Of a stretch of DNA of 60,777 nt, positions 1-29,152 are shown piece by piece. How positions within the stretch are numbered: position 1 is the stretch's first letter; the number at the start of each line of letters is the position of its first letter. Origin of the DNA: a virus; IMG/VR virus record IMGVR_UViG_3300045988_022004, one strand, 5' to 3'. The translations under genes and the position numbers were made by a program. The notes under the pieces are model-generated. The model did not search any database and had not been told where the DNA came from. It was given only the letters and a program-made list of their open reading frames with translations.

Positions 1-89
1 GTTTTTTTGTTTCTTTTTCTCAAGCTGGACTGCTTTAGTTCTTTCTCTTCGTTTATAATTTTGTTTTTCAGCCCCACTCTTTTTAGAAA
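1..89. repeat. 89-bp terminal direct repeat, identical to 60689..60777. It marks genome closure: either a circular-assembly overlap or a short terminal redundancy.
   Basis: Bases 1-89 recur exactly at 60689-60777. An ORF crossing the junction stays in frame. Confidence 0.95.
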
Positions 90-273
90 AGCTTTTTATA
101 AACTTCTCACCAGCTTTAGCCGATGATCCAAGACTTTGATACGGATCTTTCCCAGATCCCCATTTGTATCTTCCGGATCGTCTTGGCAATCCGTAGTGTT
201 CCAGATGATCGTTTAAGAGTTCTTGATTATCGACTAAGAAATCTCGAACGTCATCCGCTGAGTAATTAGCCAT
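1..273 (-). CDS. 5' part (91 codons) of a junction-spanning gene. The product is a basic protein carrying the N-terminal motif HYGLPRRSGRYKWGSGKDPYQ. It continues at 60688 down to 60395, for 188 aa in total.
   Basis: The ATG at 273-271 overlaps the upstream stop. The frame is open to base 1 and continues in frame from 60688 into track ORF 60395..60613. Confidence 0.8.
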   Translation of the reverse strand, partial: MANYSADDVRDFLVDNQELLNDHLEHYGLPRRSGRYKWGSGKDPYQSLGSSAKAGEKFIKSFSKKSGAEKQNYKRRERTKAVQLEKKKQKN

Positions 274-640
274 CGTCGCTCTTTCCTTTCTCGTCATCTT
301 CTGAAATAGGATAGTAAAGCATGTACAATCTCCATTCCATTTCCCTAAGTTGCTCTTTCAAACTGTCCATTAACGAACCACTTGTCGGCGGATCAAATAA
401 CAGACGAGTTTTAATATACACGTAATCTTTTATCAAACTTAACTTTTGGGTATCCTCTTCAAATTCGCTCCAGGCATTGTCTACCCCTGTAATTCTGTAT
501 CCTTCTTTTGGTCCAACTCCCAAATGAGTAAGGGTTGCAAATGCTGAATTGATGTGAATCGTTAAATCCAAGTCAAACTGCTCGAAGTCATCAGGACATC
601 CAACAAGCTGCTTGATAGTTTTAAGAATGCTCTGTTCCAT
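266..640 (-). CDS. Hypothetical protein with an acidic C-terminus. It has a weak resemblance to gp6-type head-tail connector proteins.
   Basis: Track ORF 266..670. The internal ATG at 640 follows GAGGAGG with a 6-nt spacer and avoids overlap with the HNH gene. Confidence 0.6.
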   Translation of the reverse strand: MEQSILKTIKQLVGCPDDFEQFDLDLTIHINSAFATLTHLGVGPKEGYRITGVDNAWSEFEEDTQKLSLIKDYVYIKTRLLFDPPTSGSLMDSLKEQLREMEWRLYMLYYPISEDDEKGKSDDG

Positions 641-1402: not shown

Positions 1403-1641
1403 ATACTTTCGTCTCCTTTCTAATATCTTTTGCCGAGACGTCGAATACTTTACGTACTCTCTATAAGAGATCTAGGTATGTTTTAATAACCCTGAAAGGA
1501 GTCTTCAACTGAAAGAGGGTCCTTCTATGTGCGACAAAAGAAGACCAAGATCCCTTATAGAGAGGGCGTAAAGCTGTCAATCTAAAATCCATTTTGACAG
1601 GATTTTGACCCCCGGAGAATTTTTAAGGAGACCGGCGATGA

Positions 1642-1673
1642 CGGAGGGGGTGCTATTTTGACGACCCCCTCCG
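1642..1673. repeat. GC-rich perfect 10-bp inverted repeat (CGGAGGGGGT / ACCCCCTCCG) with a 12-nt loop.
   Basis: Read directly from the sequence. It sits in the 383-bp non-coding gap 1403-1785 and is flanked by three ATTTTGAC copies. Confidence 0.8.
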
Positions 1674-1749: not shown

Positions 1750-1822
1750 TTTTGTTTACTTGTTTCTATGGATTTTTGGTTTTGTTTACTTGTTGCTATG
1801 AATCTTTGGTTTTGTTTCTCCG
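1750..1822. repeat. About 2.4 tandem copies of a 30-bp unit (TTTTGTTTACTTGTTTCTATGGATTTTTGG).
   Basis: Units lie at 1750-1779 and 1780-1809, with a partial unit at 1810-1822. The repeat duplicates the last codons and stop of gene 1786..2124. Confidence 0.85.
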
Positions 1823-2124
1823 TTTACACGAGTTACTCTAAAGTATTGGCCCATGAAATCATTATTGAGAATCTTGTTGATAGCAATAGCCAAACACTCT
1901 TCGTACTCAGCATCGCTCATATCTGATGTGTCAGTATCAAAGTATCTAGCTAAGTATCCTGAAGTGCAATAGCCTTTTGACTCGTCAAACCTGTACCAAT
2001 TGTCGAAATCAACAAAAGGATCAAAAGGGTTATCCACTGTTGTGATCCATATATGTAATGTATCATTACGATCAGCAGGACTTTGCGTTGCTAACTTAAG
2101 TGATCCATCTTCTGCATTGCTCAT
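1786..2124 (-). CDS. Hypothetical protein containing the motif NPFDPFVDFDNWYRFDE..GY.
   Basis: Track ORF; its ATG is preceded by AGGAAAGGAG. Confidence 0.7.
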   Translation of the reverse strand: MSNAEDGSLKLATQSPADRNDTLHIWITTVDNPFDPFVDFDNWYRFDESKGYCTSGYLARYFDTDTSDMSDAEYEECLAIAINKILNNDFMGQYFRVTRVNGETKPKIHSNK

Positions 2125-2141: not shown

Positions 2142-4841
2142 CTATAAATATTTATTGATAGTTGATACAGAAAGTCCAGTTGCTTCAGCGACTTCAGCTT
2201 GTGTATAGCCGAAGTTAAGCATAGACTTGATTCGTGAAACTTGTGAAGCATTAACTGTAACAGCTTTTCTAGGTGAAGCGAATTGCTTAACCTTGTCTGA
2301 ATCGGCATTGTTAAGTATTTGCTCAAGTTTTGATGTACTGATTGCACCAGCTTGAATTGCTTGCCATTCTCTTTCAGATATGTCTACCTGAACATTAGAC
2401 TTAGATGCACCAACCTTTGCTCTAGCTGCTGTTAAAGCCTGCTGACCAGCTCGTTTGATTTCATCTGGTGTCCAATCAGGATTGGCTTCCTGCTTCTTCT
2501 TTAATGTCTTATTAGCTAATATCTGCGCCTGTCTTTCTTTTGGCGCGTTTTGTAGCGCCCTATTAAGCTTAGCGTTAAGACTTGCAACTTCAGTTGAATA
2601 CACTTCTTTAGCTTTAGCATTCATTTCGATGTTCTTAGTTGCAACCATGTTCTTTCTAGCTATGTTAGCCATAGACTTAAGGGAGTTGGCATAGTCGGCA
2701 TATGCAACCTCTTTTGGATTCGGATCTTTAGATAACAAGGTACGGGCATCCGTAGTAGCTGCCATCTTTGTTGTTTTTGTGGTAGCCAGTTTTTCTCCTC
2801 TTGATTCCCATGTCCCATCCTTATTTCTTTTCCAGTCCGTATAGGTACGCCCTGTAAGCTCCGGATGTACTTCACCAGTCTTAGGATCAATGTCCTTCAA
2901 ACGAATCTGTTTTGCTTCAGGAACATAGGCTACTGACTTAGACCGGGATAGGAGTGTGGATGCACCAGCATCACTGGCACCCTGGTACTTTCTTTTTAGC
3001 TCGGCTATACGGTTCTCTTCAAAGGACCGCTTATAGTCCAAGCCATGTTTAGGAGCATCGATTACAACCATTGAGTGACGTACTGCTCTTGCAATTTCCT
3101 CAGGCTTTGCTCCTTTCAATGTCATATCAGTAATAAGGTTGGAGATCTTACCCATTTCCAATCCTTTACGTTTCTCTGGAAGTTTTGCTGTAACTCCTTC
3201 AATTCCACGGTACGCAATCTTAGGGTCGAAATCCTTTAAACCAATATATGCACTAATATCAGAAGTAGTTATTTTAACTTTTGATCTTGGCGAGTTAGAC
3301 GGAATTACTACTGCCGTATCTCCGTCAAAGTCAGCTCCTGATAATCTTTCTGCAACCTTAGAGTTAATACCAACTGCATCGATTGCATTACCAAGCATTG
3401 ACTTTCCTTGTGGATTCTTATTGTTTACTTTAAGCTCTGGAATCTCGAATGTACCACCATGTGGGAAACGAACAAGACATACAGTTTCTCCATTCTTGTA
3501 CGATGGTGCATATATTTCGTTGTCTTTTAGAGAAGAAACAGGTAAGATTACTTTAGAGCTTTGCCTTGGAAGTGCTGCTGCTTTAAGATCTACTGCCTGG
3601 CTGTCGCAACCCTCAGCAAAGTCTGCTAACAACTTCCGTTTAACAACCGGGTTTGTCATTTTGAGTATCTTATCAAGCTCATCCTGGCGATTGTCAATCG
3701 ATTGCTTAAGCTGCTTTTTGATCAATGGGAGCTGCTGTTTTGACAGGAACTGAGAAGCAAGGTTCTTAGAATAATGATCCCAATCGCCTTCCTCTTTCAG
3801 CTTGTTGATAGCTCCTAACTTCTCATTGCCATCCTTATCTTTGTAATGGTACTGACCATTTGCTTTAATTGTTGCTCCAAACGGATTATCCGGATCGTCT
3901 TTCATTTTCTTGAAGACATCCATTTTTGGTACATCACTTGTCTTGTTGGTATTGAATATTACATCAACGCCTTTTGGCATGTCGTCTGAATAGATTGCCA
4001 TACCTTTCAGATAGTGAGTACCATCAACAGCGATTCTTACCTGTGCGTAATGTGAATCGCCAAGGTCGAGATCCTTAACGCCTCTTCGAAGTTCGATAAC
4101 TCCATCTTTCTCCAGACCACCTTTGTCACCATATCTTACAGCAACTCGACTTGATGAGATACTTGTAGGGTATTCCGGAGCCCAGAAAGTAGTTCCGCCA
4201 TCATTGGAATACTTGTTTACTGGCTGGATCTTATCAGTATGCTGCTGAACATCTTTCCATTCAGTTCCTGGAGGGCAAAGAACTTTAGTAGTTGTATACT
4301 GCCCTTTTTGATTGATCTGTGGAACTCTTACAGAATGTACTACATATCCGGCTTCTTTTAAGATCTGAAGAGAAACATCCAATCTTGTTTTGGTGATTCC
4401 CATCTCTCTTTCGACTCCAGTACCAACATCGATGAAGTTCTTGGTTCCAACTTTCTTAGCTAAGGTTTCGGCTGCATTGATGCATGCGTCTTTCTTAAGC
4501 TTTTCACCTTGGTTCAATAACGATCGAACTGTTGATTCTTTCGATGTTGAATTGAACATAAGTTCGGCTATTTTTACATTAGAGTATCCATGCTCTTTTA
4601 ATTTCATAGCTCTGTTGATTCGATCGACCTTTTCGGCATTGACATAAATCGACTGTTTATTTCTAAACTCAGTTGTCTTCATGCCCATGAATGCAGCAAT
4701 CTCTTTCTCACTCTTGCCACGAGCTTTCATTTCCTGAACGGTTTTCAAGAACTCTGCATTGTGCTGATATGGGTTGTCGCCAGAACCCCATGGGTATCTC
4801 CCCGAATGTCGAGGAGTACCATAGTGTGCTAAGTAGCTCAT
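2142..4841 (-). CDS. Single-chain double-psi beta-barrel (DPBB) RNA polymerase-like protein of the YonO / RNAi-RdRP / crAss-vRNAP type. It carries HTH-like modules and an N-terminal HYGTPRHSGRYPWGSGDNPYQ motif.
   Basis: aa 454-512 read VCLVRFPHGGTFEIPEL...ERLSGADFDGDTAVVIP. This is an R-x-P strand followed by a DxDGD metal loop (nt 3318-3332). HTH-like segments occur at aa 40-108 and 875-899. Confidence 0.6.
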   Translation of the reverse strand: MSYLAHYGTPRHSGRYPWGSGDNPYQHNAEFLKTVQEMKARGKSEKEIAAFMGMKTTEFRNKQSIYVNAEKVDRINRAMKLKEHGYSNVKIAELMFNSTSKESTVRSLLNQGEKLKKDACINAAETLAKKVGTKNFIDVGTGVEREMGITKTRLDVSLQILKEAGYVVHSVRVPQINQKGQYTTTKVLCPPGTEWKDVQQHTDKIQPVNKYSNDGGTTFWAPEYPTSISSSRVAVRYGDKGGLEKDGVIELRRGVKDLDLGDSHYAQVRIAVDGTHYLKGMAIYSDDMPKGVDVIFNTNKTSDVPKMDVFKKMKDDPDNPFGATIKANGQYHYKDKDGNEKLGAINKLKEEGDWDHYSKNLASQFLSKQQLPLIKKQLKQSIDNRQDELDKILKMTNPVVKRKLLADFAEGCDSQAVDLKAAALPRQSSKVILPVSSLKDNEIYAPSYKNGETVCLVRFPHGGTFEIPELKVNNKNPQGKSMLGNAIDAVGINSKVAERLSGADFDGDTAVVIPSNSPRSKVKITTSDISAYIGLKDFDPKIAYRGIEGVTAKLPEKRKGLEMGKISNLITDMTLKGAKPEEIARAVRHSMVVIDAPKHGLDYKRSFEENRIAELKRKYQGASDAGASTLLSRSKSVAYVPEAKQIRLKDIDPKTGEVHPELTGRTYTDWKRNKDGTWESRGEKLATTKTTKMAATTDARTLLSKDPNPKEVAYADYANSLKSMANIARKNMVATKNIEMNAKAKEVYSTEVASLNAKLNRALQNAPKERQAQILANKTLKKKQEANPDWTPDEIKRAGQQALTAARAKVGASKSNVQVDISEREWQAIQAGAISTSKLEQILNNADSDKVKQFASPRKAVTVNASQVSRIKSMLNFGYTQAEVAEATGLSVSTINKYL

Positions 4842-5404
4842 TCAATGCCCTCCTCTTTCTTGACTGATACAATGATCTTATCAAACGATTTAATCTTGTC
4901 CATGATAGGTAATATAATTTCAGGTGTTGGAGTCTCTTTAAGAATTTCGTTATTTTGATAGATTCTCAATTCAATTCCAATATCGCCTGGTTTGATTCCA
5001 TACTCTAAGCAGAACAGTGCAGTGTAGATTTCCAACTGCTGCATGTGAGCAGGAATATCGCCTGTCTTTAAATCATGGATTCTGAGATAGTCTTTTGCAA
5101 ACTTAATTGCGTCAGCTGTACCAAAACAATTCTCAGAATAATACAACACCTGCTCTGGTGTCATTCTGTACCCAATTGCATCATTGACATGCATGTTGAG
5201 TGTTAACGGTGATCTTGGCAATCTTTGCCGAAGCTTAATACATTTTGCTGCAAACTCATGCAACTCAGTTCCTTGCTGAGCTTTCAGAAATCTTCGGTAT
5301 GTGTTTTCAAGTTTCTCAGCATCATAGTTTATCCAATGATACTTGCTAGCTCCGAGATATGCGTGATCTCCTTCTTTTACTTGCGAATGCTTCCTGAATT
5401 CCAT
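4838..5404 (-). CDS. PD-(D/E)xK family nuclease (RecB/Cas4-like, phage exonuclease type).
   Basis: GASKYHW near the N-terminus; D..AIKF...IHDLKTG (D-x(n)-D-x-K). The ATG at 5404 follows AAAAAGGAGA. The track start at 5461 is an upstream extension. Confidence 0.55.
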   Translation of the reverse strand: MEFRKHSQVKEGDHAYLGASKYHWINYDAEKLENTYRRFLKAQQGTELHEFAAKCIKLRQRLPRSPLTLNMHVNDAIGYRMTPEQVLYYSENCFGTADAIKFAKDYLRIHDLKTGDIPAHMQQLEIYTALFCLEYGIKPGDIGIELRIYQNNEILKETPTPEIILPIMDKIKSFDKIIVSVKKEEGIE

Positions 5405-5672
5405 TATATATCTCCTTTTTGTTTTGAGGGTAAATGAAACTTCCGTATTGGCCCATTTCATTTGCCTTGTTTACATAGTAATCCTGATTAGGTCTGTGAC
5501 TAGCGTCGGCATCTCTTTTTACTTCAAGTAACGCCCATCCTTCTTTTGCTAACAAAACCAAATCAGGAATGCCCTGTTTATAATTAGGGTCGTTCTTTAA
5601 AATAATAGAATCTGGAAATAACTCTTTTAATTCCGAAATTATATCGGACTGAATTTTGTTTTCTTTATTCAT
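5346..5672 (-). CDS. VRR-NUC domain nuclease.
   Basis: GIPDLVLLAKEGWALLEVKRDADASHRPNQ matches the G-x-PD...E-x-K...Q pattern. Confidence 0.6.
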   Translation of the reverse strand: MNKENKIQSDIISELKELFPDSIILKNDPNYKQGIPDLVLLAKEGWALLEVKRDADASHRPNQDYYVNKANEMGQYGSFIYPQNKKEIYNGIQEAFASKRRRSRISRS

Positions 5673-5807
5673 TGTTCTCCTTTCGTAGGGCCGGAGGTAA
5701 ACGTAATGGCAGAATTTATTTTATACAGTTGCAGAACTTTAATCAATAAAAAGAGCCCCACGAAAAGATGAGCAAAAGGAAAAGAGGCAGATTCGTCTCT
5801 CTCCCCT

Positions 5808-5832
5808 ATAATAAGCTATGTTTTTTTCGCGA
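5808..5832 (-). promoter_or_regulatory. Promoter-like cassette P1: TCGCGA-N13-TATTAT on the minus strand.
   Basis: It has the same geometry as 15 other copies. It lies directly after the helicase stop and is followed by a leader of about 135 nt before gene 5346..5672. Confidence 0.45.
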
Positions 5833-14866: not shown

Positions 14867-14871
14867 TTCTC

Positions 14872-14896
14872 ATTATAACATGTGTTTTTTCTGCGA
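14872..14896 (-). promoter_or_regulatory. Promoter-like cassette P2: TCGCAG-N13-TATAAT, with a TGT extension.
   Basis: Consensus geometry. The predicted transcription start falls at the first base of the structured leader. Confidence 0.5.
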
Positions 14897-22099: not shown

Positions 22100-22136
22100 A
22101 ATTTTGTCCTCCTTAAAATTTTTTTGTATATCTCTC

Positions 22137-22161
22137 ATTATAGAATATGATTTTTTTGCGA
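22137..22161 (-). promoter_or_regulatory. Promoter-like cassette P3: TCGCAA-N13-TATAAT.
   Basis: Consensus geometry, immediately after the stop of 22164..22994. Confidence 0.5.
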
Positions 22162-22163
22162 GC

Positions 22164-22994
22164 CTACATTATCTCACGATAATCAAATCTTGGGTTTGCA
22201 AAATATCCAACAGTCAGGCATGGCTTCCCGTTTCGTAACGTCGAGTCGAACTGAACATCCAGATAAGTGTCAGGAGTCCATCCTACATCATCACCAACTT
22301 CCACATGGTTTGCGTCTACTTCGTCGTAGAATTCATTCAGAGATATAAACATTTCTCCAGAGAGGAATCGATCTTTGATCCTGCTAACCGCCTGCAATAC
22401 ATCATTTCTTGTTGAGTAGAATACGTTGCCGGTGAACAGATCAATACAAACTTCTTTTCCGTCAGGAGCACCTTCAAACTTAGATTCTGGGATCTCCTTT
22501 ACCTGCTCGTCTCTAGCAGCCTTGGTAGCTTTGGCATCAGTCTTCGGGGATACCTTGGCTACGTTTCTACGGTATCTGTCGTACGCATTTGCTGTAAACT
22601 CATACATTGCTGTCATGGCAGTAAGTCTAGCTGTGCTGATCTTATACGATCCAACGAATGCCGAGATACTTAATGCTCCCAAAATTACTGTAGGGACATA
22701 GCACTTCCAGCAAGACTTTACAATCTGCTTAGGTCCAAGTTCTTCAAATCTATAAGCCATATCGGATTTTGCTACAGACATTGGGAGTTCCTCGTATTCA
22801 ATCTCTCCCCTTTCATACCTGTTCGCAATCTCGTCATCCATTTTGTCGATTGCTAATGGTGTAGCTTTGACCGCACTTATTACAGTAGCAGCCAGCCCTC
22901 CAATTCCAGCGATCATAAGAAGCATAGGCGCATTCTTATCGGCAACTACTGGAATCTTGTTTGCCTCCTTGATTAAGTTGTTTAAAAAGCTCAT
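22164..22994 (-). CDS. Two-TM membrane protein; family member 2 of 3.
   Basis: See 18348..19316. Confidence 0.65.
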   Translation of the reverse strand: MSFLNNLIKEANKIPVVADKNAPMLLMIAGIGGLAATVISAVKATPLAIDKMDDEIANRYERGEIEYEELPMSVAKSDMAYRFEELGPKQIVKSCWKCYVPTVILGALSISAFVGSYKISTARLTAMTAMYEFTANAYDRYRRNVAKVSPKTDAKATKAARDEQVKEIPESKFEGAPDGKEVCIDLFTGNVFYSTRNDVLQAVSRIKDRFLSGEMFISLNEFYDEVDANHVEVGDDVGWTPDTYLDVQFDSTLRNGKPCLTVGYFANPRFDYREIM

Positions 22995-23010
22995 TTTGTT
23001 TTCTCCTTTC

Positions 23011-23838
23011 TTATATCATGCTTGACTGATACTCTAAATCTTTGAACCAGCCTTTGGCTTCTCGTTTCTCTGTTTTTGTTGCCATAAATAATCCATGCGG
23101 TAAGTCGAGATATCTTATATAATATCCTTCGCTATTTTCAAACGGTACTAACTGAATATCAATCCATTCGTCAGTCTTATCATTTTCATCCATATCAATC
23201 TTAGACCAACCAACGATGTCTCCAAAACATGTCGGATTTAAATCAAGATCATATCTAAACTGATTCAAAGTCACTGTCTGATTTGGATTCATGACTAATT
23301 TCCTATTTAGTTTTAGTATAGCAGATTCTACTGTTGCTTTATCGGCATAGAATCCTTGGTCTGTCAGGCTGTCAATGAAGAATATCAATCCAGTAGTATC
23401 TACGAATTTTGATTCCTGCTCAGATACTGTTTTCGTTATTGGTGTTCTGCTTGCCTTCCAAATATCTTCTTCTTTTTCTTTACCTACCTCGTGTACTACT
23501 TCGTCTCTATATCTTTTAAAGTTCGCCTGTAAAAGACTCATAGCACCTGCTAATGCAGCGAGCTGTTTCTTATTTAAGAAGTTTGATCCAAAGATGCACC
23601 CTATTGTAGCAGCGCCAACTACAATAGACGGAGCATAAATCGGAGCTACAACCTTTACTTCTTCAATAAACGTAAGCTCTCTATGCTTCTTTTTCTCGAC
23701 CTCATCGATTTTAAGTGTCGCCTTTATAGATGCCTTATTAGTAAGCATATTAGATACGACTACGCCTATAGCCGCACCTATAGACAAGATAGTAGGCATG
23801 TTTCTTTTAATAAAATATCCCACCTGTTCAGTGTTCAT
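23011..23838 (-). CDS. Two-TM membrane protein; family member 3 of 3.
   Basis: See 18348..19316. GGAGTCAAAATG start context. Confidence 0.65.
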   Translation of the reverse strand: MNTEQVGYFIKRNMPTILSIGAAIGVVVSNMLTNKASIKATLKIDEVEKKKHRELTFIEEVKVVAPIYAPSIVVGAATIGCIFGSNFLNKKQLAALAGAMSLLQANFKRYRDEVVHEVGKEKEEDIWKASRTPITKTVSEQESKFVDTTGLIFFIDSLTDQGFYADKATVESAILKLNRKLVMNPNQTVTLNQFRYDLDLNPTCFGDIVGWSKIDMDENDKTDEWIDIQLVPFENSEGYYIRYLDLPHGLFMATKTEKREAKGWFKDLEYQSSMI

Positions 23839-23862
23839 TTTGACTCCTTTCTAGAAAAGCTT

Positions 23863-23886
23863 AAAGGCCATGTTTCCATAGCCTTT
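23863..23886 (-). terminator. GAAA-tetraloop hairpin (family copy 2).
   Basis: AAAGGCUAUG-GAAA-CAUGGCCUUU, then AAGCUUUUCU, then RBS and ATG. Confidence 0.5.
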
Positions 23887-23896
23887 AGCCGATCAC

Positions 23897-24172
23897 TTAA
23901 TGATTCTCACAATGTTTAATGTTGAAATCCACTAATGCTTTGAGGACTTCTGGGTTCTTTACATTCTCATTGATCATCAGGTTGAAACAGCAATTCATTC
24001 CCTGGTCGAATCCTTTATGGTACATCGATTCCATGCCATTTGCAATGCCATGTCCAATACGATTACCAATCAGATAACAACCAGCTAACCATGCTACTGT
24101 TTCAATCTGATCTTTATGATCGTGCACAAACTCCTTTACTCCGTTCAACTTCTGTTTAGTTTCTTCTTTCAT
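23897..24172 (-). CDS. Hypothetical protein with one TM helix.
   Basis: Track ORF; ATG follows GAAAGGAG. Confidence 0.6.
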   Translation of the reverse strand: MKEETKQKLNGVKEFVHDHKDQIETVAWLAGCYLIGNRIGHGIANGMESMYHKGFDQGMNCCFNLMINENVKNPEVLKALVDFNIKHCENH

Positions 24173-24207
24173 TTTAATACTCCTTTCGTGTTAAACAATA
24201 AGTTCTC

Positions 24208-24259
24208 ATTATAATACATGATTTTGTTGCGAAAGAAGAGAGGACCTGAATTAGTCCTC
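24208..24259 (-). promoter_or_regulatory. Terminator-promoter cassette P4: hairpin GAGGAC-N8-GUCCUC, U/C tract, TCGCAA-N13-TATAAT-GAGAAC.
   Basis: Hairpin at 24240-24259, TCGCAA at 24227-24232, -10 box at 24208-24213. Confidence 0.55.
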
Positions 24260-24406
24260 ATCCTCTTTTGAGTCGGTTGACTCTATAGCTTTTACTCTTT
24301 CATCGACTGCTTTATCGATATGCATCTGTGTTAAACAGATTCCTAAGAATCCTGCTATCGCTGTGCATCCGATCTGTCCAATCTTTAACAAAGTTTCTTT
24401 GCTCAT
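24251..24406 (-). CDS. 51-aa membrane micro-protein ending in EDED.
   Basis: MSKETLLKIGQIGCTAIAGFLGICLTQ...KEDED. ATG follows AGGAGGTGATAAA. The stop codon lies in the hairpin loop. It is not in the track. Confidence 0.5.
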   Translation of the reverse strand: MSKETLLKIGQIGCTAIAGFLGICLTQMHIDKAVDERVKAIESTDSKEDED

Positions 24407-24419
24407 TTTATCACCTCCT

Positions 24420-24444
24420 ATTATATACTATGATTTAGTTGCGA
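24420..24444 (-). promoter_or_regulatory. Promoter-like cassette P5: TCGCAA-N13-TATAAT.
   Basis: Overlaps the last codons of 24428..24667. Confidence 0.45.
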
Positions 24445-24667
24445 GACGGTTGAGTTCATTCATCATGATGTGTATGCCTTCAAGCCTGCCTGTTAAACGT
24501 TCTGTTTCCTTAATAATTTTCAGTCCTTCCGCTGATTCTTCATCTGGCAATGCTTCTGCTTCCTTATTTAATTCTTTTGCTCTTGCTAAGATTTTCTCTG
24601 CTTCTCTGTTAGCAAAGTCAATCATAACTAATAACTTATTGGTTTCTATGATTTTTTCTACTGTCAT
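24428..24667 (-). CDS. Coiled-coil protein; paralog of 27645..27875.
   Basis: Shared ...AKELN...ALPD..S.EGLKI..ETE.L.G..EGI... Confidence 0.6.
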   Translation of the reverse strand: MTVEKIIETNKLLVMIDFANREAEKILARAKELNKEAEALPDEESAEGLKIIKETERLTGRLEGIHIMMNELNRLATKS

Positions 24668-24684
24668 ATTTAACTCCTTATAAT

Positions 24685-24759
24685 TTACTTGTGATCACGT
24701 CTATCGCATACTATCATGACTATAAACACGGTTAAAACTGCTAATAAGAATGTATCCAT
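24685..24759 (-). CDS. Possible 24-aa hydrophobic micro-ORF (MDTFLLAVLTVFIVMIVCDRRDHK).
   Basis: ATG follows AGGAGTAGTTATT; it fills the 24668-24770 gap. Confidence 0.3.
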   Translation of the reverse strand: MDTFLLAVLTVFIVMIVCDRRDHK

Positions 24760-24770
24760 AATAACTACTC

Positions 24771-25433
24771 CTAATAAATGTCGATGTGGTCCACTTCGCT
24801 TTGCCATTGTGGGTAGGCGTACGCACAACTGCCATGTTTCTTAACTTCTGATGATAAGCTTGACTCGTTTACTACGAATTCTACAATCGATCCATTTGCA
24901 TTTTGACGTCTTGTAGAATCGGTATCTTTGTCTGCTTTACAGTCAGCAAGTATACCTGTTATAGTTGTACCATTCTTAAGCACAATATCAATGTATTGTC
25001 CAACCTTAGTGGTATAGTATGATCCTACGGCAATACACCATCGTCCGTCGTACGTCCAAATGCCAGATGAATCGAGTCGATATTTTGGTTTCATTTCGTG
25101 CTGGTCCGTCCCTACACTCGTAATACAATCTGCATCCATGTATGAGAAGAATCCATTTTGATCCGGAACTGATTTTGTCTCACCGATAGGAGATCCTACA
25201 ACGGGCGTATCATTTTCTTCCACACTAACAGTCGGTTCAAAGTGATACGGTGCCATGTAAGTATTTTCTAATTGAGCAGTCTTTTTCTGCAGCTCTTTTA
25301 CGATTCGGTTAGTTTCTTCTTGCTGCTGTTTGTATTCATATTGCGCCCATACCAGAAGCGATACAAATATTATGATAAAGATTATGAATAATTTATTTTC
25401 CTTTTTCAACCTCTTCTCTCCTTTTAGCTTCAT
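24771..25433 (-). CDS. Membrane-anchored exported protein; possibly a RlpA/3D-like beta-barrel acting on the cell wall (weak).
   Basis: N-terminal TM helix (LFIIFIIIFVSLLVW). C-terminal IAVGSYYTTKVGQYIDIVLKNGTTITGILADCKA. An alternative TTG start at 25409 follows AAAGGAGAG. Confidence 0.5.
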   Translation of the reverse strand: MKLKGEKRLKKENKLFIIFIIIFVSLLVWAQYEYKQQQEETNRIVKELQKKTAQLENTYMAPYHFEPTVSVEENDTPVVGSPIGETKSVPDQNGFFSYMDADCITSVGTDQHEMKPKYRLDSSGIWTYDGRWCIAVGSYYTTKVGQYIDIVLKNGTTITGILADCKADKDTDSTRRQNANGSIVEFVVNESSLSSEVKKHGSCAYAYPQWQSEVDHIDIY

Positions 25434-25731
25434 TGTATTCTATTGGAGTTGCAGACCAGCAATACCAATTGTCTTGTACACGCCGACCAGCATGAACTCT
25501 ACAATCTCCTGCACCATGATTATATTTATCTGGTTTGCATCTCTCACAATAATAGTCACAGTCTTTACAGAAACATTTTGCTGTAGGACCTCCTTTGAAC
25601 CTGCTCTTTAGTTTCTTCTGATATCTACGTTTTTCTGCTGCTTCCTCAGCAAGTGTAGTAAGTACTGCTATCGCTGCAACGACAATTATAAATACTGATA
25701 CTACCCCAATACTTGCAAATATCTTAATCAT
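25393..25731 (-). CDS. TM-anchored Cys-rich protein.
   Basis: N-terminal TM helix, then CFCKDCDYYCERC...C. GGAGTCAAAATG start context. Confidence 0.6.
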   Translation of the reverse strand: MIKIFASIGVVSVFIIVVAAIAVLTTLAEEAAEKRRYQKKLKSRFKGGPTAKCFCKDCDYYCERCKPDKYNHGAGDCRVHAGRRVQDNWYCWSATPIEYNEAKRREEVEKGK

Positions 25732-25755
25732 TTTGACTCCTTTCTAGAAAAGCTT

Positions 25756-25779
25756 AAAGGCCATGTTTCCATAGCCTTT
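25756..25779 (-). terminator. GAAA-tetraloop hairpin (family copy 3).
   Basis: Same sequence as 23863-23886. Confidence 0.5.
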
Positions 25780-25796
25780 AGCCTTAACTTTTGTTC

Positions 25797-26225
25797 TTAG
25801 ATCTTTGTCTTTGGGAAGATCCCAGGAAATGCCTTACTGAGTATTGCGCCTCCGTTACCTTCGAAAACCATAACCCCGATGCTCAAACCAGTCCAAGCTG
25901 CCAGCGTCAAGCCAGACTTGATCATTTCTAACTTTGAGTTAGTTTTGGATAGTAGCAGTTCACGCTCTCTAATGTCAAGCTCCCGTTCTTTGTGGCTCAT
26001 CTCTTTTTCAGATAAGCGTTCTTTACTAAGGATCTCTTTCGTTTTGAGATCGTACTCCTGTTTGAGTTTATCCTCTTCTAACTTCAATTTGTAGAAATCG
26101 ACCAAGTTTCCGGCAATAGCGTTTCGCTCGTCTCCGATTTTCTCATCAAAGAGTTTATTGTCCTCCTCGATAATTGTCTGTTCCAACACTTCTCTTAAGT
26201 CTGTAGTTCCTTCTTCTCTTGCCAT
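25797..26225 (-). CDS. Coiled-coil protein with a C-terminal TM helix.
   Basis: Track ORF. Confidence 0.6.
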   Translation of the reverse strand: MAREEGTTDLREVLEQTIIEEDNKLFDEKIGDERNAIAGNLVDFYKLKLEEDKLKQEYDLKTKEILSKERLSEKEMSHKERELDIRERELLLSKTNSKLEMIKSGLTLAAWTGLSIGVMVFEGNGGAILSKAFPGIFPKTKI

Positions 26226-26258
26226 TTTAAACTCCTTTCTAATTTACAACAAGTTCTC

Positions 26259-26283
26259 ATTATAAGCTTTGTTTTATTTGCGT
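26259..26283 (-). promoter_or_regulatory. Promoter-like cassette P6: ACGCAA-N13-TATAAT-GAGAAC.
   Basis: The -10 box overlaps the stop codon of 26260..26508. Confidence 0.45.
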
Positions 26284-26508
26284 TTCTGGCATTCGTCGCA
26301 CTTCGAAGGTTACAGTATCTGACTCATACATTTTCTTGAGAGAATCTTTATCTTTAACCTCCAGAGCACAATAATATGCATCGTGGTCCTCATCGTCCCT
26401 AGCCATTTTGATAATTCCAGGACAAGTGGATTTCAGTGCTCTCTGGCCAACATGCACACCTACACAGTACGCAATAGTTACTAATATAATACACAGAATA
26501 ATATTCAT
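26260..26508 (-). CDS. Small protein with an N-terminal TM helix.
   Basis: The ATG at 26508 follows AAGGAGGGGATCAAA. Confidence 0.6.
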   Translation of the reverse strand: MNIILCIILVTIAYCVGVHVGQRALKSTCPGIIKMARDDEDHDAYYCALEVKDKDSLKKMYESDTVTFEVRRMPETQIKQSL

Positions 26509-26921
26509 TTTGATCCCCTCCTTAAACAATTGTACAGACTGATCTTACATCCTATTGTGTCGCCGTCTTCGTTTGCTATAGTTTCGACATTTCTTCCATA
26601 AGGATTTCTTCGAACGACTTCATAGGCGAATCTTTCGTATGCCTTTTTGAATTCTTCTGAAGAAAATTTTGTCCCCTGCATAAATCGCTTCCCATAAATA
26701 TCGGATTTATAGTAATATTTACTATGTTCTTCACAATCTTTCACCGCCTTTTCGAATGCATGTACCTTATAGTATTGGTACCACTTATAATAGAAGTAGA
26801 AGCTTACACGTCCTGTCTCAACGACAATTGTGCATATAGGCCATCCATTGCTATCAATCGTGTTCTTTACGATCTCTGGTGCATGTCCAACCGCAGCCAC
26901 ACTTACACTAGTTTTTAACAT
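26505..26921 (-). CDS. Hypothetical protein.
   Basis: Track ORF with a 4-nt stop/start overlap. Confidence 0.6.
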   Translation of the reverse strand: MLKTSVSVAAVGHAPEIVKNTIDSNGWPICTIVVETGRVSFYFYYKWYQYYKVHAFEKAVKDCEEHSKYYYKSDIYGKRFMQGTKFSSEEFKKAYERFAYEVVRRNPYGRNVETIANEDGDTIGCKISLYNCLRRGSK

Positions 26922-27373
26922 TATTTTCCCTCCTTCATACTTTTAAACAGGATCTCGAAGCTGTCATCATTGAACTCAATTGCATGAGCAATATCTTTTG
27001 CAACAGCTCGAGCGTCTACAGGCATATTTGGCAACTTACCTGACACTAACGGACTCTTACCAATTGTCTTCATAACAGTATTCAGGTCAATGTATTTTGA
27101 CATCTTTACAGCTTTAAAGCCAGATAAGTCAACGATACCAGTTACAACATGGATATCAAGTATATTGTTGTCCAGATACACCATCTTCTTATCGATATCT
27201 TTTCCAGAGAATGGAATAATCATACTCTGATCATTGTCCCGATATAAGAATACAGCAGACAACAGGTCTCCACAATCCGGAACTAACCGAATAGAATTGC
27301 ACTCAGATGCAACCTTACTCTCATGAAACTTTCCATCCAAACCAATAAAATCCTCTAAATACTTTGCTACCAT
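26921..27373 (-). CDS. Hypothetical protein.
   Basis: Track ORF; ATG follows AAAGGAGGAAAC. Confidence 0.65.
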   Translation of the reverse strand: MVAKYLEDFIGLDGKFHESKVASECNSIRLVPDCGDLLSAVFLYRDNDQSMIIPFSGKDIDKKMVYLDNNILDIHVVTGIVDLSGFKAVKMSKYIDLNTVMKTIGKSPLVSGKLPNMPVDARAVAKDIAHAIEFNDDSFEILFKSMKEGK

Positions 27374-27410
27374 TTTTTGTTTCCTCCTTTAAAATAAAAA
27401 TATAAAAAGA

Positions 27411-27430
27411 AGAAGCCCGTGAAGGCCCCT
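27411..27430 (-). terminator. Rho-independent terminator candidate.
   Basis: 7-bp stem including G-U pairs, followed by UCUUUUUAUAUUUUUAUUUU. Confidence 0.5.
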
Positions 27431-27431
27431 C

Positions 27432-27608
27432 CTATTTTTTGTGATGCTTTTTCCAAATGTGTCTGATAATAACATAAATTATTAAACCAGCTACTATAAC
27501 ATCTCCGAAAGACAGCAGTAATGAAATACCTCCTGCTAAAAGCAGTAATACTCCAACTACTATCACTCCTAATAAAATAGCTCCTAAAATCAATAATGTA
27601 ATCATCAT
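27432..27608 (-). CDS. 58-aa two-helix membrane micro-protein (MMITLLILGAILLGVIVVGVLLLLAGG...).
   Basis: ATG follows AAGGAGGAATGT. It replaces the implausible overlapping track ORF 27367..27639. Confidence 0.55.
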   Translation of the reverse strand: MMITLLILGAILLGVIVVGVLLLLAGGISLLLSFGDVIVAGLIIYVIIRHIWKKHHKK

Positions 27609-27627
27609 ACATTCCTCCTTTCATCTC

Positions 27628-27652
27628 ATTATAGCACATGAGATTTATGCGA
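27628..27652 (-). promoter_or_regulatory. Promoter-like cassette P7: TCGCAT-N13-TATAAT, with a TGC extension.
   Basis: Overlaps the last codons of 27645..27875. Confidence 0.45.
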
Positions 27653-27875
27653 GGCGCTCGAGTTCTTCCATGACAAGGTTAATACCTTCAACTTTACCGG
27701 CTAAGTGTTCAGTCTCGACAAGAATTTTTAATCCTTCTTCCGAACTCTTATCTGGCAATGCTGCCATTTTTACATTCAATTCTTTTGCTCGATTCAATGC
27801 TTTCTCCATTTCCATGTTTACGAAATCATACAACAGGACTGTCTTGTCACGTTCAATAATGTCTTTTACTTTCAT
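27645..27875 (-). CDS. Coiled-coil protein; paralog of 24428..24667.
   Basis: ATG at 27875 in the GGAGTCAAAATG context. Confidence 0.6.
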   Translation of the reverse strand: MKVKDIIERDKTVLLYDFVNMEMEKALNRAKELNVKMAALPDKSSEEGLKILVETEHLAGKVEGINLVMEELERLA

Positions 27876-27900
27876 TTTGACTCCTTTCTGCGAAAAGCTT

Positions 27901-27924
27901 AAAGGCCATGTTTCCATAGCCCTT
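27901..27924 (-). terminator. GAAA-tetraloop hairpin (family copy 4).
   Basis: AAGGGCUAUG-GAAA-CAUGGCCUUU. Confidence 0.5.
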
Positions 27925-27929
27925 ATGCT

Positions 27930-28094
27930 TTAATCCTCCTTATCATTTTTCTTAGTTTTCTTCTTGAATGGAAGTTTAATAATTCCTAACCACATGAGTT
28001 CTCCAACTGTGATCACCATCGAAATCAATGATCCGATAAGTGTCATTTTGAACCATCCTCCGTAAGTAATTGGTTTACTAAATAATCCTTTCAT
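27930..28094 (-). CDS. 54-aa membrane micro-protein (MKGLFSKPITYGGWFKMTLIGSLISMVITVGELMWLGII...).
   Basis: ATG follows AAGGAGGTAATTATA. It is not in the track. Confidence 0.5.
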   Translation of the reverse strand: MKGLFSKPITYGGWFKMTLIGSLISMVITVGELMWLGIIKLPFKKKTKKNDKED

Positions 28095-28129
28095 TATAAT
28101 TACCTCCTTATGATAATAGTTTATTTCTC

Positions 28130-28186
28130 ATTATAATATATGAGATTTTTGCGAGAAAAAGAAAGAGCCAATGTTTCCATTAGCCC
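28130..28186 (-). promoter_or_regulatory. Terminator-promoter cassette P9: GAAA-loop hairpin (family copy 5), U tract, TCGCAA-N13-TATAAT-GAGAAA.
   Basis: Hairpin at 28165-28186, TCGCAA at 28149-28154, -10 box at 28130-28135. Confidence 0.55.
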
Positions 28187-28193
28187 ATCCTAG

Positions 28194-28304
28194 TTAAAAT
28201 AGCAAAGCTCCTAATCCAAGCCCAATTCCTACCAGTGCAATTACCGGTCCCAGAATTGCCAATGTAATAAATACCTTTACTATGTTTGCTAAGAATTCTT
28301 TCAT
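28194..28304 (-). CDS. 36-aa hydrophobic micro-protein (MKEFLANIVKVFITLAILGPVIALVGIGLGLGALLF).
   Basis: The ATG at 28304 follows AAGGAGGAGCTAAA. The upstream part of the track ORF is leader sequence. Confidence 0.5.
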   Translation of the reverse strand: MKEFLANIVKVFITLAILGPVIALVGIGLGLGALLF

Positions 28305-28325
28305 TTTAGCTCCTCCTTTCTTCCT

Positions 28326-28377
28326 ATTATAGGAGAAGAATTTATTGCGAAAGAAGAGAGGACCTGAATTAGTCCTC
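28326..28377 (-). promoter_or_regulatory. Terminator-promoter cassette P10.
   Basis: Hairpin GAGGAC/GUCCUC at 28358-28377, TCGCAA at 28345-28350, TATAAT at 28326-28331. Confidence 0.55.
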
Positions 28378-28608
28378 ATCCTCACTCTTAATGACTTTCA
28401 TTTTTCCTTTCTGCACAAGTCTTTTTAAATCCTTATCCGTATACCCGAGTGCTCTAAGAGCATTTTCAGCCTTGGCTATTTCCTCTTCTACTTTGGCAGT
28501 TTCTTTTTGCCTTTCGATAAGGATCTTGTCAAGTCTTTCATTCTCCTCTCTTAACATCTCCAGTATGGGATCTGATTTCTTCTTTGTGCGTATAAAAAAT
28601 CTAAACAT
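28369..28608 (-). CDS. 79-aa coiled-coil protein ending in EDED.
   Basis: The ATG at 28608 follows GGAGGTGATTAGT; the track start is a GTG at 28617. Confidence 0.6.
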   Translation of the reverse strand: MFRFFIRTKKKSDPILEMLREENERLDKILIERQKETAKVEEEIAKAENALRALGYTDKDLKRLVQKGKMKVIKSEDED

Positions 28609-28622
28609 ACTAATCACCTCCT

Positions 28623-28673
28623 ATAAAGAGATATGAATTTCTTGCGAAAAGGAAACGGGCTTTGAATCGCCCG
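28623..28673 (-). promoter_or_regulatory. Terminator-promoter cassette P11, with a weak -10 box.
   Basis: Hairpin CGGGC/GCCCG at 28656-28673, TCGCAA at 28642-28647, CTTTAT at 28623-28628. Confidence 0.35.
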
Positions 28674-28684
28674 CGTCCCTAGAC

Positions 28685-28903
28685 CTATTTAGTTTTCTTC
28701 TTTGATTTTCTAGAATCATACCACATCTGCAGTTGGCCATACTCCCATACGCATGCACCATATCCAACTATGCTAAGTGCTAATCCGATATAGAGACCTA
28801 CATTGTAGATCATCCAGAATCCGATTATCATTAGTAATGTTGGTGCACATACAAAGCTCAAAGCTGCCAACAGTGCAAATGCTCGTTCAATCTTTCTTTT
28901 CAT
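28685..28903 (-). CDS. 72-aa two-TM membrane protein.
   Basis: Track ORF; ATG follows TAGGAGGTAAC. Confidence 0.6.
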   Translation of the reverse strand: MKRKIERAFALLAALSFVCAPTLLMIIGFWMIYNVGLYIGLALSIVGYGACVWEYGQLQMWYDSRKSKKKTK

Positions 28904-28930
28904 ATTAGTTACCTCCTAAATATAATCTTC

Positions 28931-28981
28931 ATTATAACCCATGAATATATCGCGAAAAGAAAGAGACCTTGATTAAGCCTC
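28931..28981 (-). promoter_or_regulatory. Terminator-promoter cassette P12.
   Basis: Hairpin at 28963-28981, TCGCGA at 28950-28955, TATAAT at 28931-28936. Confidence 0.55.
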
Positions 28982-29152
28982 AATCTCGCTTTCGTTCATT
29001 TCATTTACAATTCTGTCATATGCTCTTAAACCAGTGTCCTTGTCGCATGTTCTTTTTAATACCTCGTCAGTTCTTCTATCAACCACCAAGTATCTTTCAT
29101 TTTCATCCTGAACAAGTGCAATAGTTCCGTTACTTTTTACAAAATTATACAT
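28973..29152 (-). CDS. 59-aa hypothetical protein ending in EIEA.
   Basis: The ATG at 29152 follows AAAGGAGTGATTTAT. Confidence 0.55.
   Translation of the reverse strand: MYNFVKSNGTIALVQDENERYLVVDRRTDEVLKRTCDKDTGLRAYDRIVNEMNESEIEA

Follow-up and report, generated by a model that had tools for sequence, protein, structure and literature searches.

RNA polymerases (RNAPs) with two double-psi beta-barrels (DPBBs) transcribe all cellular genomes but need sigma factors or general transcription factors for promoters. The single-chain phage enzyme YonO, of phage SPbeta, is a proven DNA-dependent RNAP with an essential aspartate triad, its D-to-N mutant being inactive, and transcribes the SPbeta late genes. 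Promoter finding by minimal single-chain phage RNAPs such as YonO has been described as an open question (Forrest et al. 2017). A protein of Lactococcus phage 1706 was placed among five 'YonO-like' families, its role being called 'an enigma' (Ruprich-Robert and Thuriaux 2010). This protein is also a signature gene of the actinobacteriophage-Lactococcus-Faecalibacterium supercluster, with an HHpred probability of 95.7%, obtained from a family alignment, for Pfam RNA-dependent RNA polymerase (RdRP), a DxDGD motif, and helix-turn-helix (HTH) domains reported at both ends; promoters and transcription were not discussed (Koert et al. 2021). Described here is a new gut-metagenome member of this 1706-type family, encoded in the virus record IMGVR_UViG_3300045988_022004, and a repeated promoter-like element found in the same genome. 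The whole 60,777-nucleotide stretch that was analysed is referred to as the window. Both the 2010 and the 2021 papers had already predicted that the family is one of polymerases. The promoter element, the sharing of an N-terminal peptide with other phage proteins, and a possible virion association are new, the earlier descriptions mentioning none of these.

The polymerase gene and its family

The gene is an ATG-initiated open reading frame (ORF) of 899 aa on the minus strand, as are all recognisable genes of the window (Table 1). A sequence-only reading of the window had proposed that this frame encodes a single-chain DxDGD polymerase; its frame, its residue numbering (D504, D506 and D508), and its placing of the peptides VCLVRFPHGGTFEIPEL (aa 453–469) and SGADFDGDTAVVIP (aa 501–514) are all correct. 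The extreme C-terminus is GYTQAEVAEATGLSVSTINKYL (aa 878–899). The protein matches phrog_4291 of PHROGs, 'RNA-dependent RNA polymerase', over its full length (E=0, 1191 bits, aa 3–899 against profile positions 11–905 of 909). Full-length homologs were found by tblastn in 250 phage records, with 44–50% identity generally and 39–44% for the Lactococcus phages, which make up 13 of the records. Phage 1706 itself appears in the search that used the Lactococcus phage P092 protein as the query; its ORF75 is 48.6% identical to the P092 homolog and belongs to the same family, the Lactococcus relatives being of the 1706 type. The homologs come from phages of Arthrobacter, Gordonia, Streptomyces, Lactococcus, Curtobacterium, Rhodococcus, Microbacterium, and Faecalibacterium, and from gut siphovirus contigs. 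No GenBank phage protein is more than 50% identical to the window protein, while unnamed metagenomic proteins are 94% identical. A profile of the 33-homolog set has 4,109 matches at E≤0.001 among 1.84 billion representatives of 50%-identity clusters. The family of over 4,000 sequence clusters includes gut Firmicutes phages, dairy Lactococcus phages, and hundreds of SEA-PHAGES actinobacteriophages.

Conservation was assessed in two alignments, of 33 close homologs and of 50 diverse homologs. Residues S501-G-A-D504-F-D506-G-D508, R458, and P460 are invariant in both, and D246-G247, R269, and K279-G280 are likewise invariant in the 50 diverse homologs. Judged from this alignment, all eight residues of the universal two-barrel active site are invariant across the family. 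The YonO invariants D249-G250, R266, K271-G272, R492, P494, and D535/D537/D539 mirror those of the window family, with D246-G247, R269, and K279-G280 appearing to parallel the first three of these. In QDE-1 the barrel-B signature is one acidic and two basic residues (D709, R738, and K743). The spacing from R458 to D504 is 46, versus 45 in QDE-1 and 43 in YonO.

Other sequence searches gave little. The Pfam scan of the protein found no RdRP or RNAP match, with PF05183 having no hit at E≤1, and detected only the C-terminal HTH. PF05183 is also absent from the precomputed Pfam hits of the 120 listed homologs. Sequence searches of the PDB, with the single sequence and with the 33-sequence profile, returned no polymerase, only HTH-like and spurious matches. 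Searches against solved structures were therefore uninformative at the sequence level and comparison of folds was needed.

The AlphaFold2 model of the full-length protein has a predicted local distance difference test score (pLDDT) of 79 and a predicted TM-score (pTM) of 0.70, and a model of the core alone (aa 205–705) has a pLDDT of 78. The full-length model begins with a disordered tail, a helical HTH-repeat region (aa 29–134), and a winged-helix-like unit (aa 143–189). These are followed by a beta module (aa 233–350), two long connector helices, and a second beta module (aa 428–514) that carries R-x-P and DFDGD, then by a conserved helical region, a small beta domain with long helices, and the C-terminal HTH. 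The domain order is that given in the P23-45 paper for single-chain two-barrel RNAPs, which is N-terminal domain, DPBB-B, connector, DPBB-A, bridge helix, and trigger loop. By this canonical order, the helical region at aa ~556–634 would occupy the position of the bridge helix and trigger loop. It has ten residues that are invariant in the 50 homologs (M563, G564, N568, L569, D572, A586, M591, D595, K598, and H599).

With the full model as the Foldseek query, QDE-1 is the sole PDB match at E≤0.001 (5.6e-9). Weaker matches are to RNAP beta-prime chains, gp66 of the crAss phage phi14:2 (6vr4_A, E=0.024), and the non-virion RNAP (nvRNAP) of AR9 (7s00_d, probability 0.99, 153 columns, root-mean-square deviation 5.6). 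With the core-only model, all 25 PDB matches at E≤0.001 are two-barrel RNAPs. These are 14 QDE-1 chains (2.4e-11 to 7.5e-10, ~525 columns, TMq 0.39–0.45), the maize and Arabidopsis RDR2 proteins (6.7e-8), P74-26 gp62 and the related gp64 entry 8f72 (~1e-6), and beta-prime chains. The models place two beta-rich modules on one chain, in the order B then A, with QDE-1 aligned over the whole 501-residue core. The two predicted barrels in B-to-A order and the invariant DFDGD loop thus support the single-chain DxDGD two-barrel polymerase that had been proposed. In addition, no sigma factor or RNAP-subunit-like gene was found among the ~38 ORFs scanned, which are mostly non-structural, in agreement with the earlier statement that no other subunit-like genes are present. 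It is very likely that the protein has the fold of a single-chain two-barrel RNAP, and likely, if somewhat less so, that it is a catalytically active RNAP, presumably on a DNA template. Labels given to the homologs in GenBank vary between 'HTH DNA-binding domain protein', 'RNA-dependent RNA polymerase', 'hypothetical', and 'structural protein', the first of which is incomplete and the second probably misleading.

The best structural match, QDE-1/RDR2, is also a single chain with barrel B before barrel A and the same eight active-site residues. However, QDE-1 is a eukaryotic maker of double-stranded RNA (dsRNA) without promoter specificity or HTH arms, and shares only ~13% identity with the window protein and no match at the level of hidden Markov models (HMMs). 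YonO resembles the window protein in being a single-chain phage enzyme of ~100 kDa with RxPH...DxDGD, encoded just upstream of late and packaging genes. It differs in having no recognisable HTH arms, in its terminal Cys4 cluster, and in the Pfam RdRP hits of its homologs. By BLASTP, YonO has no significant match (E=0.32), the best local alignment pairing LVRFPH...ADFDGDTAVVI with ILRSPH...FDNDGDKALII. An hhalign comparison of the 50-sequence profile with a 26-sequence YonO profile aligns barrel A only (aa 434–524 against 469–552, E=0.017, probability 2.7%). Judged from its conserved residues, the window protein shares the active site of all two-barrel RNAPs and is not a sequence-level member of the YonO family.

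The non-virion RNAPs P23-45 gp64 and P74-26 gp62 are likewise single-chain two-barrel enzymes (E ~1e-6), and their initiation at repeated motifs is the model proposed for the window protein. They are unlike the window protein in their length of ~590 aa, in having no HTH fusions, and in belonging to a structural sub-clade other than that of QDE-1 and gp66 (P23-45 paper). P23-45 also has a virion RNAP, gp96, that is fused to the tape measure protein (TMP), whereas the window TMP has no polymerase fusion; a second, TMP-fused polymerase in the window was rejected, the 2,938-aa ORF being an ordinary tape measure protein. The phi14:2 gp66 has a two-barrel fold of the QDE-1-like clade and is a virion-delivered early transcriptase, a precedent for the virion idea considered below, but it is 2,166 aa long, has no HTH arms, and matches at E=0.024 against 5.6e-9 for QDE-1. 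Its gene is presumably among the virion genes. The earlier description as 'YonO/RdRP/crAss-like' therefore stands for the two-barrel fold, for which QDE-1 and the RDR proteins are nearest, while the kinship to YonO is marginal and the match to gp66 weak. From the 1706-type family (phrog_4291) nothing essential differs, with the domain order, the HTHs at both ends, the DxDGD loop, the penultimate gene position, and the neighbours being the same.

The C-terminal HTH passes the Pfam cut-offs for HTH_3 (25.4 bits, cut-off 23) and HTH_7 (24.4 bits, cut-off 23.8). Sigma70_r4_2 misses its gathering cut-off, with 24.3 bits versus 25.7 at the C-terminus and E=0.22 at the N-terminus. The C-terminal module is therefore a generic tri-helical HTH and not demonstrably sigma region 4. 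Of the 'sigma-region-4-like' HTHs claimed for the protein, the HTHs at both ends are present but generic HTH families score as well or better. Residues S893 and T894 are invariant in five phages of four host genera and in the gut metagenome, and the helix S-x-S-T is kept in all. The N-terminal HTHs (aa 42–64 and 85–110) and the winged HTH (~aa 143–190) have weak Pfam support (E=0.003–0.04). The two N-terminal HTHs are helical in the model and fit the pattern G-x-S-x-x-E-I-A...S-x-x-T-V-R, with T56 and R60 of HTH-1 invariant.

The 29-bp element in the window and its relatives

The motif TCGCAA-N13-TATAAT has seven exact matches in the window, all on the minus strand, against 0.06 expected. When mismatches are allowed there are 15 in-register copies, on the coding strand only, of what is one 29-bp element; the sequence-only reading had given at least 16. 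The boxes of the element are TCGC (positions 1–4), T(T)ACA (11–15), TATrAT (20–25), and GAGA (26–29), and are about one helical turn apart. The TTACA box is only 5 bp from TATAAT, which is therefore not a -35/-10 geometry. The upstream boxes and their spacing are not sigma-A-like, as had been claimed for the motif, but TATAAT is the perfect sigma-A consensus -10. A ribosome-binding site (RBS) and start codon are 11–34 nt 3' of most copies and a hairpin with a T-run is directly 5' of at least 8. The small-gene region contains 17 terminator-like hairpins, against 4.6 ± 1.9 expected. The weaker copy 5' of the operon containing the polymerase gene was found with position weight matrices (PWMs) built from other phages only (16.6 and 12.6 bits) and is 991 bp before the polymerase ATG. 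Equivalent copies are 949 bp upstream of the polymerase in Arthrobacter phage Correa and 946 bp upstream in Gordonia phage Schwartz33 (weak).

Canonical sigma-70 promoters were rejected, there being no enrichment around the polymerase gene, within the small-gene region, or over the coding strand as a whole. Sigma-70-type matches are at chance (12 versus 13.1 expected; 33 versus 33.7 in the small-gene region), with 16 on the coding strand of the genome and 24 on the empty strand. Among the terminators, the hairpin GAGGACTAATTCAGGTCCTC is found in three identical copies (24240–24259, 28358–28377, and 29202–29221, minus strand), each directly 5' of the 29-bp element. This suggests that terminator-promoter cassettes have spread by duplication or recombination. 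A second hairpin, TAAAGGCTATGGAAACATGGCCTTTA, is present twice (23862–23887 and 25755–25780).

Unbiased k-mer and dyad motif discovery on the coding strand of the small-gene region of each phage led to one shared 29-bp element, with its register unchanged, in the window, Correa, Kardashian, Schwartz33, P092, and 1706 (Table 1), the genomes of which range from 33 to 60% in GC content. One copy is also present in a closer gut-metagenome relative, the sixth relative examined. The window PWM recovers six of six Correa sites and nine of 11 Kardashian sites in register. Conversely, the Kardashian PWM finds six window sites, all in register with the window's own copies, and a PWM from Correa and Kardashian alone has 14 hits to window sites on the coding strand and a single hit on the opposite strand. 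Hits fell to ~0 in dinucleotide shuffles, and the SPbeta control gave one weak hit in 50 kb.

The elements of the two named Lactococcus phages are not the same. The -10-like box is TATAGT-AGAA in all nine listed copies of 1706 versus TATAAT-GAAA in P092, and a degenerate TCGCA box is retained in 1706 versus no upstream box in P092. The HTH-2 recognition helix has ESSVR in 1706 and PGSVT in P092. The window, Correa, Kardashian, Schwartz33, and 1706 proteins all have the form E-S-[ST]-[VI]-R, which thus co-varies with the TCGCA box. The genes that are supercluster-wide are the packaging and head genes, the helicase, the HNH endonuclease, the RecB-type exonuclease, the HTH protein, and a small hypothetical (Koert et al. 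2021), which leaves the polymerase as the only supercluster-wide protein with recognisable DNA-binding domains. The two-barrel RNAPs of P23-45 initiate at repeated phage-specific motifs before early genes (P23-45 paper). The suggestion that the motif copies are targets of the enzyme gains from the conservation of the element with the polymerase across the relatives, although the link is unproven. Autonomous recognition of the 29-bp element by the HTH arms is plausible on this comparative support, the case for and against it being about level.

In two places in P092 (L007:20083-20140 and 20471-20530) the element is followed by an identical tRNA-like sequence, gactttagctcagaggtagagcg, and not by an RBS and ORF. 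It may therefore be that the element drives tRNA genes in P092. No tRNA genes were found in the window itself.

Possible readers of the element and the N-terminal peptide

The best explanation as a whole, to which an even chance is given, is that the polymerase is the phage's own DNA-dependent transcriptase and reads the 29-bp element. Barrels B then A would be on one chain, with D504, D506, and D508 holding the catalytic Mg2+ and D246, R269, K279, R458, and P460 completing the eight-residue active site. The HTH modules around the core would number three or four, with a pair of HTHs and a winged HTH on the N-terminal side and one HTH on the C-terminal side. The cognate signal would be TCGCA-N5/6-T(T)ACA-N5-TATrAT-GAGA, the boxes of which, one helical turn or so apart, would be read by the HTH arms, with HTH-2 reading TCGCA, so that no sigma factor would be needed. 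The element would drive 13 terminator-bounded small-gene units, a further unit among the replication genes, and the endonuclease-exonuclease-polymerase operon. The first enzyme molecules would either arrive with the virion or be made when host RNAP primes a positive-feedback loop via TATAAT.

A virion route is suggested by the N-terminal peptide of the polymerase, which is mostly invariant in the family (H6, G8, S13, G14, R15, G19, G21, and Q26) and is predicted to be disordered (pLDDT <50 for aa 1–24). The peptide recurs in two highly basic proteins whose genes flank that of the large terminase (TerL). Both of these match the N-terminus of phrog_4291 (E=2e-10 and 1e-8) and an HMM of the peptide (E=6e-11 and 6e-10). 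One of the two crosses the circular junction and was missed by the ORF listings. The shared form is HYG..R.SGRY.WGSG..PYQ, and the TerL-flanking proteins of the relatives have (L)AHYGV.GMKWG, a weak match to Pfam DUF7211; a literature search on DUF7211 and the GMKWG peptide found nothing. The peptide could be a capsid-, portal-, or terminase-targeting signal or could bind a partner. Internal proteins of T4 have N-terminal capsid-targeting sequences. The original GenBank label of 1706 ORF75 (EU081845.1 52082-55171; L015:46485-49574) is 'structural protein', with the RefSeq copies labelled 'RNA-dependent RNA polymerase'. The same 'structural protein' label is on eight other 1706 products, two of which (orf62 and orf71) are also outside the morphogenesis module. 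This pattern suggests detection in virions. Delivery of the polymerase by the virion is considered possible but not probable. The fullest form of the proposal, a sigma-independent system across phyla with one box per HTH, carried in the virion via the HYG...WGSG peptide and transcribing the early genes and its own operon, is more doubtful still.

Several observations weigh against the best explanation. The -10 box is a perfect sigma-A consensus and the units are bounded by hairpin and T-run terminators, which are typical of host RNAP. Similarity to the 'sigma appropriation' promoters of the T4 MotA type, with a box at -31/-26 plus TATAAT, is also on this side. The operon of the polymerase itself is behind a copy of the element, so another source of the first polymerase is needed. 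The 30-kb late module and the cos gap lack copies, as do the left ends of the relatives, and the late genes therefore need another route or read-through across cos. The structural evidence is from predicted models with modest TM-scores (0.39–0.45), and the links at the sequence level are weak or absent, with YonO marginal and no HMMER hit to the Pfam RdRP model. The co-variation of HTH-2 with the TCGCA box is a single lineage contrast and suggestive only. Literature searches found no biochemical, transcriptomic, or proteomic study of the 1706-type family, and no transcript 5' ends are known.

Many of these observations would fit a division of labour as for YonO, in which the host sigma-A holoenzyme reads the 29-mers, possibly with a MotA-like phage factor at TCGCA/TTACA, and the phage enzyme transcribes the late genes from another promoter or by terminator-resistant read-through across joined cos. 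The near-universal -10 consensus, the intrinsic-terminator cassettes, the element copy before the polymerase operon, and its absence from the late module are all in keeping with this, and the time-zero problem would be solved without virion packaging. YonO itself transcribes the late genes of SPbeta, with yonO just upstream of the late operon, and here no large gene separates the polymerase gene from cos and the packaging genes. An extended -10 (TGCTATAAT) precedes the first late genes of Correa, and a weak Mor-like activator ORF is present in the window (16093–16500). Most copies of the element, however, have neither a -35 at 16–18 bp nor a TGn, and ~29 bp are conserved, including the spacer and discriminator, in phages with hosts of two phyla. 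Phages 1706 and P092 both infect L. lactis, yet their elements differ, which host sigma-A cannot explain. There is also no small DNA-binding protein supercluster-wide and no conserved late-promoter motif at the left ends. A search for a late-promoter motif, covering the cos gap and the left end of each of three linear relatives, found neither the 29-mer nor a shared second motif.

The middle promoters of T4 have a similar geometry to the element, with a phage-specific MotA box centred near -29, which is 13 bp upstream of a consensus TATAAT, and no -35. The element differs from these in its third box, TTACA, in the GAGA after the -10, and in its conservation across phyla, and no MotA or AsiA homolog is present among the ORFs scanned. 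On balance the division of labour with host RNAP is the main rival but a minority prospect. If the host does read the element, this would be a cross-phylum example of sigma appropriation.

It is improbable that the enzyme makes some other RNA product, such as replication primers, origin transcripts, or RNA from single-stranded DNA (ssDNA) as for QDE-1, with the HTHs targeting the origin or cos. The gene does end the replication and recombination module, beside the exonuclease, endonuclease, ssDNA-binding/annealing protein, and helicase genes, QDE-1 has both DNA-dependent and RNA-dependent RNA polymerase activity and is involved in making dsRNA, and RNA amplification or other polymerisation roles were considered by Ruprich-Robert and Thuriaux (2010). 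The phage already encodes a primase-polymerase, however, the characterised phage members YonO and the P23-45 enzymes are transcriptases, and an element conserved in the lineage would be left without a conserved reader. Least credible of all is a DNA-binding regulator with a degenerate relic of the barrels, as 'helix-turn-helix DNA-binding domain protein' in most of the listed GenBank records and the detection of the HTH alone by Pfam might suggest, since ~600 of the 899 residues are conserved polymerase core and the eight active-site residues and DFDGD loop are invariant in 50 diverse homologs of a family of this size.

Transcription from the element by the phage's own enzyme, if true, would amount to an orthogonal transcription system of compact size and would add to the known virion-delivered polymerases. 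With both the virion and the HTH readings, a two-barrel RNAP would be recognising promoters in a new way, and ordinary ~60-kb siphoviruses, of a kind common in the human gut and among soil actinobacteria, would have a new class of virion RNAP. Relatives are available from cultivable hosts (Arthrobacter, Gordonia, Streptomyces, and Lactococcus). With the polymerase, a synthesisable 29-bp candidate promoter, and these relatives, promoter recognition by minimal two-barrel RNAPs is directly testable.

Genome layout and neighbouring features

The window is a complete, circularly assembled phage genome, with positions 1–89 and 60689–60777 being identical and leaving 60,688 unique bases. It is new at the nucleotide level, where only two matches to it were found, both fragmentary and both to human-faecal phage contigs. 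On the coding strand, the packaging and head genes are followed by the tail genes, the lysis genes, and a 9-kb small-gene region, and then by genes for nucleotide metabolism and replication (primase-polymerase, ssDNA-binding/annealing protein, and helicase). The order ends with the VRR-NUC endonuclease, the Cas4-type exonuclease, the polymerase, the phrog_4303 gene, and a 380-bp gap before the packaging genes. Two closer metagenomic relatives share this gene order, and five GenBank phages do so in outline. Koert et al. (2021) refer to the product of the small gene as 'conserved hypothetical protein'.

Table 1. Positions of the polymerase gene, its parts, the 29-bp element, and associated features, with the element consensus of each phage
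Feature	Position	Strand	Remarks
Gene for predicted HTH-fused single-chain two-barrel RNA polymerase	2142..4841	-	phrog_4291; phage-1706-type family
N-terminal peptide, aa 6–26, HYGTPRHSGRYPWGSGDNPYQ	4764..4826	-	mostly invariant in family; predicted disordered
HTH-1, aa 42–64 (GKSEKEIAAFMGMKTTEFRNKQS)	4650..4718	-	model helices 45–51, 56–83; weak HTH_38, Sigma70_r4_2
HTH-2, aa 85–110 (GYSNVKIAELMFNSTSKESTVRSLLN)	4512..4589	-	S103, R106 invariant in 33 close homologs
Candidate winged HTH, aa ~143–190	4272..4415	-	model helices 143–163, beta-hairpin 167–189; weak HTH_5, MarR_2, E=0.03–0.04
Predicted first barrel DPBB-B (beta-like), aa ~230–350, D246-G247, R269, K279-G280	3792..4154	-	model strands 233–350; invariance
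Predicted second barrel DPBB-A (beta-prime-like), aa ~425–515, R458-x-P460 and DFDGD	3297..3569	-	model strands 428–514; YonO alignment
Putative catalytic Mg-binding loop D504-F-D506-G-D508	3318..3332	-	invariant; equivalent to YonO aspartate triad
Helical region after barrel A, aa ~556–634	2940..3176	-	model helices 556–575, 580–599
C-terminal HTH, aa 865–899	2145..2249	-	Pfam HTH_3, HTH_7 above cut-off
Small conserved gene, phrog_4303	1786..2124	-	always after polymerase gene; without Pfam hit
cos region	1609..1672	-	hairpin GGAGGGGGTCGTCAAAATAGCACCCCCTCC 1643–1672; right end CATCGCCGGTCT 1629–1640; left end CCTTAAAAATTCTCCGGGGG 1609–1628
Cas4/RecB-type exonuclease, co-operonic	4838..5461	-	phrog_3953, E=5e-75; synteny in all relatives
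VRR-NUC-type endonuclease, first operon gene	5346..5672	-	phrog_93; weak Pfam VRR_NUC; synteny
Weaker element variant (TCGCGAAAAAAACATAGCTTATTATAGGG)	5804..5832	-	gap before endonuclease-exonuclease-polymerase operon
29-bp element in replication module	14868..14896	-	
Small-gene region, 13 element copies	22133..30338	-	mostly terminator-promoter-RBS-gene cassettes
Element copies 1–5	22133–22161, 24204–24232, 24416–24444, 26255–26283, 27624–27652	-	
Element copies 6–9	28126–28154, 28322–28350, 28927–28955, 29165–29193	-	
Element copies 10–13	29433–29461, 29685–29713, 29958–29986, 30310–30338	-	
185-aa basic protein between TerL and portal	58080..58637	-	with LEHYGLPRRSGRYKYGSGKEPYQ
196-aa basic protein just upstream of TerL	297..1 + 60688..60394	-	with LEHYGLPRRSGRYKWGSGKDPYQ; crosses circular junction; 5' part 1..297, 3' part 60394..60688
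Peptide proteins of relatives: Correa gp07, gp09	L013:420-1427, 3211-3720		
Peptide proteins of relatives: L004	L004:14514-15242, 16995-17567		
Element consensus, window (GC 39%)			TCGCAaaaaa.tCat.t..TATAATGAGA
Element consensus, Arthrobacter phage Correa (GC 45%)			tCGCGtaAAtTACAcGGGCTATAATGaaa
Element consensus, Streptomyces phage Kardashian (GC 60%)			TCGCA.g.T.TACAtGgCcTat.ATGAGA
Element consensus, Gordonia phage Schwartz33 (GC 54%)			TCGCA..aatTACACGtCCTATAaTGAGA
Element consensus, Lactococcus phage P092 (GC 33.5%)			tTTTAagTTTTACATACCCTATAATGAaA
Element consensus, Lactococcus phage 1706 (GC 33.6%)			yCrCAwsTTTTACATAyrCTATAGTAGAA

The 380-bp gap 3' of the polymerase gene was considered as a late promoter region and rejected, because it contains the cos site. 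This makes the polymerase gene penultimate at the right end of the genome. It is penultimate in P092 and 1706 also, where the upstream neighbours are not annotated as nucleases. The cos hairpin is GC-rich, with the arms GGAGGGGGT...ACCCCCTCC. At GGAGGGGGTCGTCAAAATAGCACCCCCTCCGTCATCGCCGGTCT|CCTTAAAAATTCTCCGGGGG the window joins sequences that form the right end and the left end of the Correa, Kardashian, and Schwartz33 genomes, which are linear. The contigs of three relatives end at the cos gap. Judged from these ends, the packaging signal shows cross-phylum conservation, as do the polymerase and the promoter element.

The 8-mer TCAAAATG is present 38 times on the coding strand and is absent from the other strand, and GTCAAAAT has 27 coding-strand copies. 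Of these copies, about a dozen are in RBS-to-start contexts (AGGAGTCAAAATG) and the rest are within genes, with two in the cos gap. The 8-mer could reflect a preference in start context or could be an orientation-dependent signal of the Chi or KOPS kind.

The Mor-like ORF noted above encodes 135 aa on the minus strand and has weak matches to Mor (PF08765, E=4.5e-4), HHH_5, and phrog_532, 'late transcriptional activator' (E=3e-4). Activation of late genes is a possible role for it. Three phrog_2152 paralogs are present on the minus strand (18348–19316, 22164–22994, and 23011–23838; E=1e-47 to 4e-54), of which two form a tandem pair. The gene for a radical SAM domain protein (33473–34810, minus strand; phrog_1802, E=2e-64) has an unusual location, with the tail genes on one side and the lysis genes on the other.

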